Part shown: positions 57,526-64,000 of the stretch, piece after piece
How positions within the stretch are numbered: the stretch's first letter is position 1
Layout of the letters: each line of letters begins with the position of its first letter
Assembly (NCBI RefSeq): GCF_003334335.1
Contig: NZ_QOWQ01000016.1
Length of the DNA stretch: 64,000 bases
Source of the DNA: Escherichia coli
Lineage (GTDB): Bacteria > Pseudomonadota > Gammaproteobacteria > Enterobacterales > Enterobacteriaceae
Reading direction: 5' to 3' (one strand)
Notes under the pieces: model-generated
The model's database searches: none
What the model was told of the DNA's origin: nothing
What the model saw: only the letters and a program-made list of their open reading frames with translations
Program-made: the position numbers and the translations under genes

Positions 57526-58359
57526 GTGATTGTCACTATTGTCGGTTGGCTTGTGTTGTTTGTCTTTCTGCCCAACCTGATGATCATTGGCACCAGCTTT
57601 TTGACCCGCGACGACGCCAGTTTTGTCAAAATGGTCTTTACGCTGGATAACTACACGCGTCTGCTCGATCCGCTCTATTTTGAAGTGCTATTGCACTCGC
57701 TGAATATGGCGCTGATCGCCACCCTCGCCTGCCTGGTGCTGGGCTACCCGTTTGCCTGGTTTCTGGCGAAGTTGCCACACAAGGTGCGTCCGCTGCTGCT
57801 GTTTCTGCTGATTGTTCCGTTCTGGACCAACTCATTAATTCGTATCTACGGGCTGAAAATTTTCCTCAGCACCAAAGGCTATCTCAACGAGTTTTTGCTC
57901 TGGCTGGGCGTTATCGACACACCAATCCGTATCATGTTCACGCCCAGTGCGGTGATTATCGGTCTGGTTTACATTCTGCTGCCGTTTATGGTGATGCCGC
58001 TGTACTCCAGTATCGAAAAACTGGATAAGCCGTTGCTTGAGGCGGCGCGCGATCTCGGTGCCAGCAAGTTACAGACTTTTATCCGTATCATTATTCCACT
58101 GACGATGCCGGGAATTATTGCCGGATGTCTGCTGGTGATGCTGCCAGCGATGGGCCTGTTCTATGTATCCGACCTGATGGGCGGTGCGAAAAACCTGCTG
58201 ATCGGTAACGTCATCAAGGTCCAGTTCCTTAATATTCGTGACTGGCCGTTTGGTGCAGCTACCAGCATTACGCTGACTATCGTAATGGGCCTGATGTTGC
58301 TGGTTTACTGGCGCGCTTCTCGTTTGCTGAATAAGAAGGCAACCGAAATAGATGATTAG
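57526..58359 (+). CDS. potB: Spermidine/putrescine ABC transporter permease PotB with a non-K-12 C-terminus (...LLNKK-ATEIDD)
   Basis: ORF 57496..58359; GTG at 57526 would give the recalled K-12 start. The body is PotB-like but the last 6 residues and everything downstream differ from the K-12 operon as recalled; potC and potD are absent from the remaining 5.6 kb. Confidence 0.8.
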   Translation: MIVTIVGWLVLFVFLPNLMIIGTSFLTRDDASFVKMVFTLDNYTRLLDPLYFEVLLHSLNMALIATLACLVLGYPFAWFLAKLPHKVRPLLLFLLIVPFWTNSLIRIYGLKIFLSTKGYLNEFLLWLGVIDTPIRIMFTPSAVIIGLVYILLPFMVMPLYSSIEKLDKPLLEAARDLGASKLQTFIRIIIPLTMPGIIAGCLLVMLPAMGLFYVSDLMGGAKNLLIGNVIKVQFLNIRDWPFGAATSITLTIVMGLMLLVYWRASRLLNKKATEIDD

Positions 58360-58391
58360 TGCTGAATATTCAAAAAGTTAATAGCAAATTT

Positions 58392-58425
58392 GGCATGCTT
58401 TTTACTTTTGCGTAAAAAGCATGCC
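58392..58425. other. Perfect 14-bp-stem hairpin just past the synteny breakpoint
   Basis: GGCATGCTTTTTAC-ttttgc-GTAAAAAGCATGCC; no adjacent T-tract. Confidence 0.6.
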
Positions 58426-58523
58426 TCTATCCATAAAATCAAATAGTTATAATCTAATTTTGGAGAATGTTTTTTTCAGCGCCCTTTGATCTGATCGCTG
58501 AAAAAACAACAAATAGTATAAAA

Positions 58524-62200: not shown

Positions 62201-63304
62201 AACCGTGCCCTTACCCCCAAAGGTGATATCTTTCCCGTCATTCAGACTCCCTCCCCTGAAGCCGTTCATCTTCCATACCTTCCCGTCCTGAGAAAGGGTT
62301 CCCTCTCCGCTTCCCTTATTGTAATTCCACACAATGTCACCACCGGCAACTGCCGGCACGACAGTGCCTGAACTGTCCTGCTTTATCGTGTTATTCACAT
62401 CCCCTGCGGGAATCACCGTAAACCAGTTCGTCTTCCCTTTCTCACCGGCATAACCATTAAGTACAGCAACAAGGACCCACTGCTTCTTCACCGCATCCCA
62501 GGCAAAAAGCGGTGAGCCACTGTCTCCCGGTGTCCCGTAAGATGCCAGCGGACCATTGACACTCTGGTACAGATACCCCGGGTTTGACACCAGACTCCAG
62601 TCAGAAATGAGCGGACTTCCCACCGTCCCGCCCGTCTTCCAGGCGTAAGCACCCGCTATTCTGGTCAGCGCACCGGAAGCAGCTCCGGTGTACTGCGTTC
62701 CACTCCCCATACGATAAAACACCGGATAACGACTGCGGTTCTGGTATACCCCCTTGCCGGTTCCGGCATCCGTGACGCTCACCGGGGCAACTTCTGTCAC
62801 CAGTTTGTTCAGCCGGGGAGTATGAAAATCACGCCAGTGCTCATTACGGTCAACAAGGCGATATGTCGTATCATCCGCATAACCAAAACGCACCGTGTTG
62901 TAGCTGCCGTTATGCTTAACCCCCGCCACATACTGCGGAGAAATCAGTGTTGCCACCCCCAGTATCTGGTCCACAACACTGAAATCCATCATCGGCGCCT
63001 TGTCCAGCCGCCCACCGACAGCCCCGTTCCTGCCATAAAGCGGAATATTTGTGGCACCGGCATGAAACGCGCCCTTGTTCTCAGCAAAATCCCTGTAGGT
63101 CTGCCAGGGGAGGGTATTCCCGACAACGGATGCCAGCGACGGATAAGAAAACAGAACACCGGCAACGGCACCAGAGGCCAGAAGAAGACGGGAAAGCATC
63201 CCCGCACCGGGAATGCCGGACGACTTTTTCCTGCCGCCCGCCGTTTCCGCTACCGCAACCAGTTCTTTTCTGTCATTCATTCTGAGAGAATATATTCTGT
63301 TCAT
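59279..63304 (-). CDS. SPATE-type (S6 peptidase) serine protease autotransporter, 1341 aa, with an unusual Pro/Ser-rich insert before the linker
   Basis: Extended signal peptide MNRIYSLR...VAVAE...SLA; catalytic His in GVKHNG, Asp in LVDRN, Ser in GDSGSPLF; linker FINEVNNLNKRMGDLRDINGEAGAWARI; beta-barrel ending ...NAVNAGFRYSF. The passenger is divergent from the SPATEs I can recall (Tsh/Hbp, Pic, Sat). Confidence 0.9.
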   Translation of the reverse strand: MNRIYSLRMNDRKELVAVAETAGGRKKSSGIPGAGMLSRLLLASGAVAGVLFSYPSLASVVGNTLPWQTYRDFAENKGAFHAGATNIPLYGRNGAVGGRLDKAPMMDFSVVDQILGVATLISPQYVAGVKHNGSYNTVRFGYADDTTYRLVDRNEHWRDFHTPRLNKLVTEVAPVSVTDAGTGKGVYQNRSRYPVFYRMGSGTQYTGAASGALTRIAGAYAWKTGGTVGSPLISDWSLVSNPGYLYQSVNGPLASYGTPGDSGSPLFAWDAVKKQWVLVAVLNGYAGEKGKTNWFTVIPAGDVNNTIKQDSSGTVVPAVAGGDIVWNYNKGSGEGTLSQDGKVWKMNGFRGGSLNDGKDITFGGKGTVVLKDDVVQGAGSLTFNGDYTVRPEGNQTWVGGGIIVNDGHRVDWMVNGLAGDALHKTGKGTLVVAGSGENPGTLNTGDGTVILAQKADAAGRVRAFSEVRIVSGRPVVVLQDSHQIEGDRIRWGYRGGTLDINGNDMTFHRLAAADEGAVLTSRAGSATVRLDFSPSGQKAVMWHGHFTGNLSVQNNTSSAVDFIMDGGADMSGSFTQQGGGLYIQGHPVVHAVSSEAVAAALRKQGDNSVLTQPVSFTQKDWESRTFSIGQLKLKEASFSLSRNATLTGDIDADNATMVLGSDSLYLDMKDGTGSSSAPVKGTSAAGGASGTSTFRGNVNMRHSSLTVRDHFTGSITASDSRIAVSSENVRLEGDSRLTSSALTVSDGGRLHVKGGLETDGGVTLDGGTLLVDGGSVRNDVYERLLAWSEERGGLNGSGEYDFMTGAAGLLRGYVRGSAGNVNLQNAAWMMTGNSSVKHLESSGSALYFSRPGGEFHTLTAGSMDISDSVLVMRTDLHHSDQLRVTESLRGKNNLLLVDFTERSDGQKALNIPLVTAPAGTGADVFSVKTRDTGFSHITPVVRAEQGTGGTAWQLNVVQPETAAEPVVDEVSRPSLPVVMRQDAKTPNPVEAVSPLPSPVSAPSPAPEASVTDVLTGENAGESGEYRDETRWLLTGYRSTVNASAVRDAGMLMSMGHRNFINEVNNLNKRMGDLRDINGEAGAWARIMSGTGSAGGGFSDNYTHVQVGADKKHELDGLDLFTGVTMTYTDSNAGSDTFSGKTKSVGAGLYASALFDSGAYIDLIGKYVHHDNEYTATFAGLGTKDYGSHSWYAGAEVGYRYHVTEDAWIEPQAELVYGAVSGKQFSWKDQGMSLSMKDKDYNPLIGRTGVDVGKSFSGKDWKVTARAGLGYQFDLLANGETVLRDASGEKRIKGEKDGRMLMSVGLNAEVRDNIRFGLEFEKSAFGKYNVDNAVNAGFRYSF

Positions 63305-63577
63305 TCCCCGGTTTCCCTGTCTTTTCCCGGACAGCAGTCAACAGTGACGCCTGCCCGGATATCTGTTAACGAATCTGACGAATACTGCCGCCAGATTACT
63401 GAAGCAACACAGCTGCCGCGGTAAAAAGAGCCACCACCCCACCCAGCCACACAAACAACATGAAACACATTGCGCCTGTGGTGTAACGCTTTCTCCCGTA
63501 TCTCCGGTCTCTGTCTTTGTTCATCATCTGCACCTTCTGAATCATCAGAAGATGCCGCGCATCCGGCAGGACCGCCA

Positions 63578-64000
63578 TCAGGCACCAACAAGCCGTCTGA
63601 CACTCACACCATACAGCCCGTTTTTCGCCATTCCCGTATACAGAAAGGTATTCACCGTCTTCGTGTTAATACCCATCTCACTGGCAAGGCGGCAGGGTCT
63701 CGACTGGCGGTAGACATAACCGAACATCACCACCATCTCTGACATCGTCAGCGGGCGGGCAGCACTGTTATACGTCCAGACGCCGTTGTGTATGGCATCA
63801 CTTATCTGCTCACCATCACGGAGCAACTCCGCATCCAGTTGCAGAAAATGACGCCCCTGGAACATACACCGCATCAGCCTGCCCAGCAGGCCATCACTGA
63901 TTATCAGCCAGGATTCGTCAAAATCCGGGATATAACGGCGGTTCTCCGGCAGGAAAAACTCCCTCGCCAGTATCACACTGTGTTCCTTCAGTAACGCCTG
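63578..64000 (-). CDS. Partial ORF upstream of the SPATE with a weak LuxR/GerE-like C-terminal HTH (N-terminus beyond the window)
   Basis: Frame open to the window edge; C-terminal LTMSEMVVM...RLASEMGINTKTVNTFLYTGMAKNGL loosely fits the LuxR-type HTH pattern. Confidence 0.35.
   Translation of the reverse strand, partial: QALLKEHSVILAREFFLPENRRYIPDFDESWLIISDGLLGRLMRCMFQGRHFLQLDAELLRDGEQISDAIHNGVWTYNSAARPLTMSEMVVMFGYVYRQSRPCRLASEMGINTKTVNTFLYTGMAKNGLYGVSVRRLVGA

Follow-up and report, generated by a model that had tools for sequence, protein, structure and literature searches.

Phage 21 and e14 integrate inside the 3' end of the icd gene and carry a surrogate 3' end, and in phage lambda the sib/tI retroregulatory hairpin lies just downstream of int and of the attachment (att) core. 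The 64,000-nucleotide stretch of Escherichia coli DNA analysed here (contig NZ_QOWQ01000016.1 of assembly GCF_003334335.1, hereafter the window) presents a related arrangement in the potABCD operon, which is broken after potB and continues into a YkgJ-family gene and a serine protease autotransporter of Enterobacteriaceae (SPATE); this break very probably results from the integration of a lambdoid prophage at the potB/potC att site, the site of prophage Sp6 of the Sakai strain. Asadulghani et al. sequenced the circularised Sp6 and found the core ccttcttattca in attL, attP and attR (PMC2669165, supplementary Fig S5), and among the prophages of this site considered here Sp6 alone has been shown by experiment to excise, to pass to K-12 and to insert there at the same locus (PMC2669165). 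The published location of Sp6 is between potC and potB (PMC8190617), and potC has been listed in a review as an insertion site of Shiga toxin (Stx) phages (PMC8065619); the Stx-phage attribution rests on that review, the word potC being absent from the main text of Steyert 2012 (PMC3491183). Sakai Sp9 was considered as the potB prophage and rejected, since the literature gives Sp6 for this site and places Sp9 at yciD (PMC8190617). As for SPATE genes carried by prophages, reviews describe eaaA and eaaC as prophage-borne, linked to the eib immunoglobulin-binding genes and transducible, and neither expression, secretion or proteolytic activity nor a substrate or phenotype is on record for any Eaa protein (PMC3153244; PMC6956023).

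The evidence that carries this reading is the exchange of flanking sequences around a short core at the end of potB. Alignment of the three types of site places the same 12-bp core, TGAATAAGAAGG, in the attB of K-12, in the junction of the window and in the integrase-side junction of E. coli SW070917, with the flanks swapping exactly there; both the core and the exchange are direct observations on the aligned DNA. The K-12 attB reads ...ttgcTGAATAAGAAGGtggaactcgaATG(potC), the window junction reads ...ttgcTGAATAAGAAGGcaaccgaaatagatgattag, and the integrase-side junction of SW070917 reads ...ccttaTGAATAAGAAGGtggaactcgaATG(potC). The core lies four codons ahead of the K-12 potB stop, and the Sp6 core and that of the window are identical, ccttcttattca being the reverse complement of TGAATAAGAAGG. 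For an excised phage the expected attP circle junction would be …ccttaTGAATAAGAAGGcaacc… (int … ccttaTGAATAAGAAGGcaaccgaaat …), and the potB-potC sequence restored by excision would be the same …ttgcTGAATAAGAAGGtggaactcgaATG… that K-12 carries. Unoccupied genomes, K-12 among them, match a 201-bp junction probe only up to window position 58339 (megablast), three bases away from the breakpoint of about 58342 that the initial annotation of this DNA had proposed. Positions 58328-58339 of the window are thus read, with high confidence, as the integrase-distal (tail- or cargo-side) junction of a lambda-like prophage, which in the naming used for Sakai Sp6 is attR. The host genes and the junction itself are the following.

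56376-57512, plus strand: potA, an open reading frame (ORF) annotated as potA in collinear genomes; host gene, intact.
57496-58359, plus strand: potB, residues 1-281 host-encoded up to 58339, the last six codons and the stop phage-encoded.
58328-58339, plus strand: att core TGAATAAGAAGG, 12 bp, crossover region of site-specific integration and last stretch shared with the unoccupied K-12 site.
58340-58359, plus strand: surrogate potB 3' end (A T E I D D stop), from the alignment and the comparison with K-12 PotB.

The identity of the host genes was likewise established directly. The PotB of the window matches the NCBIfam PotB equivalog NF007044 with 551.6 bits, and potB, potC and potD were translated from the K-12 record and then compared with the window: the 287-aa PotB of the window and the 285-aa PotB of K-12 are 100% identical over residues 1-281, after which the former ends in ATEIDD and a stop, whereas the latter ends in VELE. 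In K-12 the potC ATG overlaps the potB stop, and the window lacks that sequence. A tblastn search of the whole window with K-12 PotC and PotD as queries revealed no PotC or PotD gene, the sole match being a weak, paralogous one of PotC to potB, as expected. The GC content is 43-46% across 58250-59250 and 54-60% in the autotransporter gene, against a backbone of about 50%. The initial annotation had described most of this from the letters alone, and its description holds: potA and potB are intact, with a potB end of ATEIDD rather than VELE; the potC start that should overlap the potB stop is missing; no PotC- or PotD-like ORF follows; the YkgJ-like ORF and the SPATE that it saw downstream correspond to a PF03692 gene at 58524-58826 and to an S6 autotransporter at 59279-63304 on the minus strand; and the comparison of GC content which it had called for shows the drop past the junction and the rise in the large ORF.

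The replacement of the potB end is shared with other lysogens. The RefSeq PotB of SW070917 and 23CRST047 (WP_000799399.1) has the same 864 bp and 287 aa as that of the window, and the junction DNA of both strains encodes ...KKATEIDD and a stop. Other prophages at the site give the PotB tails ATEIDN (O157) and VSELDD (strain 99-3165), the prophage ends of the VSELDD class sharing only about 34 bp past the core. Since ATEIDD, ATEIDN and VSELDD come from different phages, a short acidic surrogate PotB tail is a conserved property of the attP arm. As with phage 21 and e14 at icd, the phage arm of the window prophage re-closes the host frame and leaves the host protein essentially intact; the potB site differs from icd in that only four host codons are replaced, by six non-identical ones, and in that the target lies inside an operon, so that potC and potD are cut off from the promoter.

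The prevalence of both junctions was counted in a collection of 5426 complete E. coli genomes, to which the source genome of the window does not belong. The tail-side junction of the window type, searched with the 201-bp probe, is present in 654 of them, including O157:H7 and O111:H8, and the integrase-side junction in 1392 (about 26%), again including O157:H7, which places potB/potC among the att sites that lambdoid prophages commonly occupy in E. coli. The integrase-side junction is therefore about twice as common as the tail-side junction of the window type, from which it follows that the integrase and attP are conserved, and that the tail-side arm and the cargo are highly mosaic. Reference potB genes ending NKKATEIDD and followed by the same downstream sequence, which the initial annotation had held to speak against a break, do occur, in SW070917 and 23CRST047; the insertion stands all the same, yet the junction turns out to be common and already annotated.

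The full arrangement of potB, YkgJ-family gene and SPATE occurs in three genomes, SW070917, JNEC-KY176 and 2013C-3033, and in each of the three the lambdoid gene set is complete. Between SW070917 and the window collinearity holds at 99.8-99.9% identity, and this strain is the closest overall (99.93% in the backbone, 99.3% in the phage part). Its potB is followed by genes for the YkgJ protein, the S6 peptidase, a hypothetical protein and an Eib-like protein with a YadA C-terminal domain, then by tail fibre, J, tail, head and terminase genes, and further on by lysis, replication and repressor/immunity genes, exo, xis and an Arm-domain int, directly after which stand intact potC and potD; the whole prophage measures about 55 kb. 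The layout recurs in JNEC-KY176, where two small ORFs separate xis-int from potC-potD. The integrase of the relative shares 95.7% identity with those of phages vB_EcoS-640R1 and vB_EcoS-813R8 and 44% with lambda Int. In several relatives the portal gene is frameshifted. In the JNEC-KY176 prophage a porin gene annotated as ompC lies between the tail genes L and M (locus L012, 10852-12006; NZ_AP045172.1).

Judging from these near-identical relatives, the body of the phage and its int-potC end would lie beyond the window in the same order. A tyrosine integrase would have recombined the phage into the 12-bp core TGAATAAGAAGG near the 3' end of potB. With six codons and a stop contributed by the phage arm to replace those of the host, PotB remains full-length (281 host residues plus ATEIDD); potC and potD would now stand behind xis-int, at the far side of the prophage; and from 58849 onward the prophage carries the eib-eaa lysogenic-conversion module known from P-EibA and P-EibC.

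Several points weigh against this reading. The window ends within orf-156 at 64000 and includes no phage structural gene, eib, integrase or second junction; the genome collection lacks the source genome, and its closest sequence over 58343-64000 is 99.3% identical; scans of window 58200-59400 and of positions 32700-34200 of the SW070917 locus (L003) gave neither a consensus promoter nor a consensus terminator at the two junctions; and 2013C-3033, which shares the full junction with only two other genomes, has at its far end a different integrase beside tRNA-Ser and mtfA in place of int-potC. The last point is the basis of the alternative that survives best, namely, in line with the rearrangement option of the initial annotation, that the att junction is genuine, but that the source prophage is a recombinant hybrid and that homologous recombination between the potB-site prophage and another lambdoid prophage has inverted a large piece of the chromosome and put the far end of the prophage elsewhere (for instance at serU/mtfA), with potCD hundreds of kilobases away. 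In 2013C-3033 (NZ_CP027323.1, 2001000-2057000; loci L010/L011) the potB, YkgJ and eaaA order and a similar body end in DUF4224 and a different tyrosine integrase by tRNA-Ser, mtfA, tRNA-Asn and yeeJ, and this genome is 100% identical to the window over the 201-bp junction and shares the EaaA length of 1341 aa; such a far end implies, as far as gene order can tell, a hybrid prophage and a large inversion between the prophages of the potB and serU sites. Inversions between the potC-site prophage and another prophage have moreover been documented in O157:H7 (PMC10925052). The two other relatives, SW070917 (the closest overall) and JNEC-KY176, end in xis-int followed by potC-potD, however, and the inversion in 2013C-3033 is itself deduced from its far-end genes only, so a hybrid with a distant far end is unlikely for the window, though it keeps an appreciable share of the probability.

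Far less probable is a non-phage pathogenicity island with a SPATE, comparable to the she, LPA and EspC islands, inserted in the pot operon. Many SPATE genes do reside on chromosomal islands (PMC3153244), and the window itself displays cargo-type genes only, with no phage structural gene; but in all three junction genomes the SPATE gene forms one continuous block with tail-fibre, J, tail, head and terminase genes, prophage P-EibA has the module at 98.9% identity, orf-156 and the SPATE match PHROG phage families, and the core is the att core of Sp6. The target is also a protein-coding gene rather than a tRNA site, and the relatives bear a lambda-type Int/Xis pair and a complete lambdoid body instead of a P4-type integrase. 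An assembly chimera or misjoin at about 58340, in whose favour there is the abrupt end of K-12 homology and nothing else, is for practical purposes excluded, since 654 complete genomes, assembled independently, have this very junction and three of them the full order of potB, YkgJ-family gene and SPATE, the breakpoint matches the experimentally defined att core to the base, and the potB frame is closed by a conserved phage-encoded tail. Among the island insertion, rearrangement and chimeric assembly that the initial annotation had left side by side, insertion is thus favoured by the att junction and by the prophage of the relatives, and the chimera falls with the 654 genomes. Its further suggestion that the segment past the junction is accessory or novel holds for the first term, the segment being prophage, and fails for the second, the eib-eaa module of P-EibA having been published.

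Under prophage integration at the potB/potC site, the segment 58340-58848 is the end of the prophage, in which the six PotB replacement codons are followed by a conserved hairpin, then by a candidate Int arm site and last by a YkgJ/CxxCxxCC gene; these first 0.5 kb or so of phage DNA are the end common to the frequent potB-site prophages. Besides the surrogate codons, its features are as follows.

58392-58425, plus strand: hairpin with a perfect 14-bp stem and a 6-nt loop, from an inverted-repeat search; 52 nt past the core, just after potB in the lysogen.
58458-58466, plus strand: TTTTGGAGA, candidate arm-type Int binding site of the int-distal arm; sole match in the 64-kb window.
58524-58826, plus strand: YkgJ-family (CxxCxxCC) gene with a Cys cluster, Pfam PF03692 (E=2.4e-11, residues 6-98); first gene within the prophage end.

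The hairpin has a fold energy of -21.8 kcal/mol and is kept in 23CRST047 and O157, and the end of 99-3165 has a hairpin of other sequence at the same position. Because in the circular phage it would closely follow int and the core, and on the int-sense strand, we infer that it is a candidate sib/tI-like element of the phage int transcript. The likeness to lambda sib/tI consists in a strong hairpin just past int and the att core which integration moves to the opposite end of the prophage; the difference is that the window hairpin has no sequence similarity to it, no U-tract and no Rfam match, and its role is putative. A scan of 56000-64000 gave no Rfam match at E<=0.1. Over the intervals scanned at the two junctions no sigma-70 promoter-like site was detected, and the terminator-like hits occurred at or below the chance rate, none of them at the hairpin. 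The motif TTTTGGRGA is found once in the window (58458-58466) and in three tandem copies at 33925-33957 of the SW070917 locus, which on the int side places them 48-80 bp upstream of the core, with none elsewhere in the 45 kb of that locus; these copies are plausible arm-type Int sites.

The YkgJ-family gene, for which no NCBIfam or PHROG match was obtained, has a premature TGA (window 58800-58826) just before the joint with the eib-eaa module and encodes 100 aa, so that it lacks nine codons found in other prophages, such as that of 23CRST047 with 109 aa; a YkgJ family cysteine cluster protein is annotated beside potB in many genomes. In comparison with Sp6 and the O157 prophages, the window has the same 12-bp core, the same position in potB and near-identical sequence in the first 135 bp or so of the tail-side arm, hairpin included, and the same integrase family stands beside potC in O157 genomes. 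The match to the O157 arm ends at about 58475, and the cargo differs, the O157 arm being followed by the type III secretion effector genes espK, nleB and espN and the window arm by the YkgJ-family gene and eib-eaa; the PotB tail is ATEIDN in O157 and ATEIDD in the window.

Homology to the common end with potB and the YkgJ-family gene stops at about 58837 (58834-58840 in different genomes), and the remainder of the window corresponds to a module known from the P-EibA and P-EibC prophages.

58838-58849, no strand assigned: recombination joint at which the prophage end of the common potB type gives way to the eib-eaa module, from the alignment of the limits of homology.
59019-59049, minus strand: stem-loop downstream of eaaA, AAGGAGATC...GATCTCCTT, corresponding to the stem_loop feature 10169-10199 of AF151091, mapped by alignment.
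59279-63304, minus strand: eaaA, class-2-like SPATE, S6 serine protease autotransporter of 1341 aa, from its near-identity to EaaA, Peptidase_S6 domain and barrel.
63396-63578, minus strand: orf-60 homologue of P-EibA/P-EibC, 60 aa, in the position of orf-60A between orf-156A and eaaA.
63578-64000, minus strand: orf-156 homologue, 5' end cut by the window end (phrog_6585, E=1.5e-82, profile positions 25-156 of 156).

The P-EibA record of strain ECOR-9 (AF151091) is 98.9% identical in DNA to window 58849-63995, and the match to P-EibC, likewise of ECOR-9 (AF151674), starts at window 59278. Toward potB the order of the module is (eib)-orf156-orf60-eaaA, downstream of tail-fibre genes, of which the window shows the partial orf-156, orf-60 and eaaA; the same orf-156, orf-60, eaa order is found in P-EibA and P-EibC, and in P-EibA the module follows J, lom and tail-fibre genes. 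The orf-156 homologue is annotated in the relatives as a 471-bp hypothetical gene, and a gene with a YadA C-terminal domain (Eib-like) lies just past the position of the window end in all three; both orf-156 and the SPATE match PHROG phage families. The flank past eaaA differs in P-EibA, AF151091 having no match beyond 10369 to the end with the YkgJ-family gene and potB, and the module in the ECOR-9 record is therefore bordered by other DNA. Twenty-one complete genomes cover at least 80% of a query made of 58343-64000, and the 18 in which the module is not at potB match it only from 58849 or 58851 (14 genomes) or from 58918 (four genomes) onward. The module, at potB in only three of the 21, thus moves between lambdoid prophages by recombination.

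The protein of eaaA is predicted to be a secreted S6 serine-protease autotransporter. Its full-length identity is 98.4% to EaaA of P-EibA and 98.1% to EaaC; Pfam Peptidase_S6 (PF02395) covers residues 58-298 with E=4.1e-83, with GDSGS at residue 260, and the TIGR01414 beta-barrel covers residues 851-1341 with 247 bits. The cleavage motif NNLNKRMGDLRD is at 1064 (conserved N-N site, EVNNLNKRMGDLRD), and the barrel structures of EspP match residues 1065-1341. At the N-terminus (residues 1-46) Pfam ESPR gives E=0.33 only, and the sequence MNRIYSLR...LVAVAE resembles the motif by eye. The best matches among solved structures are the class-2 SPATEs Pic (9z7b, E=8e-225) and Hbp/Tsh (3ak5/1wxr), whose Peptidase_S6 domain, GDSGS, beta-solenoid passenger, EVNNLN cleavage site and 277-residue barrel are all present in the protein of the window, and from which the Eaa passenger diverges. 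The window protein also has a 6-aa PSPVSA insertion at residues 996-1001 (window 60302-60319), in a linker rich in Pro, Ser and Ala, which the EaaA of P-EibA does not have; the insertion is equally absent from EaaC and the SW070917 protein, and it resembles a short tandem duplication. A length of 1341 aa is also annotated for the EaaA of 2013C-3033.

Separation of potC and potD from potAB raises the question of how they are expressed in the lysogen, which touches about 26% of the complete E. coli genomes, O157:H7 included. At the integrase-side junction of SW070917 (33995-34033 of its locus) a phage ATG and the core form an 8-codon mini-ORF, MNKKVELE and a stop, whose stop overlaps the potC start codon. 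This mini-ORF reproduces the kind of overlap that potB and potC natively have, and may keep translation coupled. Scans of the same locus gave no promoter-like site between int and potC (32700-34200) and no plus-strand terminator-like site between the int stop and the potC start, and the papers that name potABCD together with a prophage are silent on whether integration alters pot expression. It could be speculated, though we consider it quite improbable, that integration is not neutral, potCD being about 55 kb from the potA promoter in about a quarter of E. coli, and that the phage arms have evolved to manage the split: on the tail side the acidic surrogate tail of PotB would be followed by a hairpin that ends the potAB transcript, the DNA from int to potC would be kept free of terminators and the mini-ORF would overlap the potC start. 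If this were true, the expression of potCD, and hence spermidine uptake, would be coupled to transcription of the phage int region, and polyamine transport would be switched whenever the prophage excises.

All the elements of this locus have been described before: the att site in Sp6 and Stx phages, the surrogate gene end, the eib-eaa module and EaaA. The value of the comparison lies in correct annotation, the break in a core operon being a prophage att junction and neither an error nor a new island, and the SPATE being EaaA, phage cargo adjoining the gene of an Eib-type immunoglobulin-binding adhesin as seen in the relatives. The questions that remain, the expression of potCD and the function of EaaA, are general to the class and not special to the window.

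Elsewhere in the window, otherwise collinear with SW070917 at 99.93%, a 1.4-kb IS4 that interrupts umuC in that strain at about 24953-24964 is lacking. The icd att site, which holds e14 in K-12 and Sp8 in Sakai, is unoccupied (about 45170-47700), iraM, icd and rluE being contiguous by collinearity with SW070917, and the phoQ/roxA site, which holds an integrase element in O157, is also empty.

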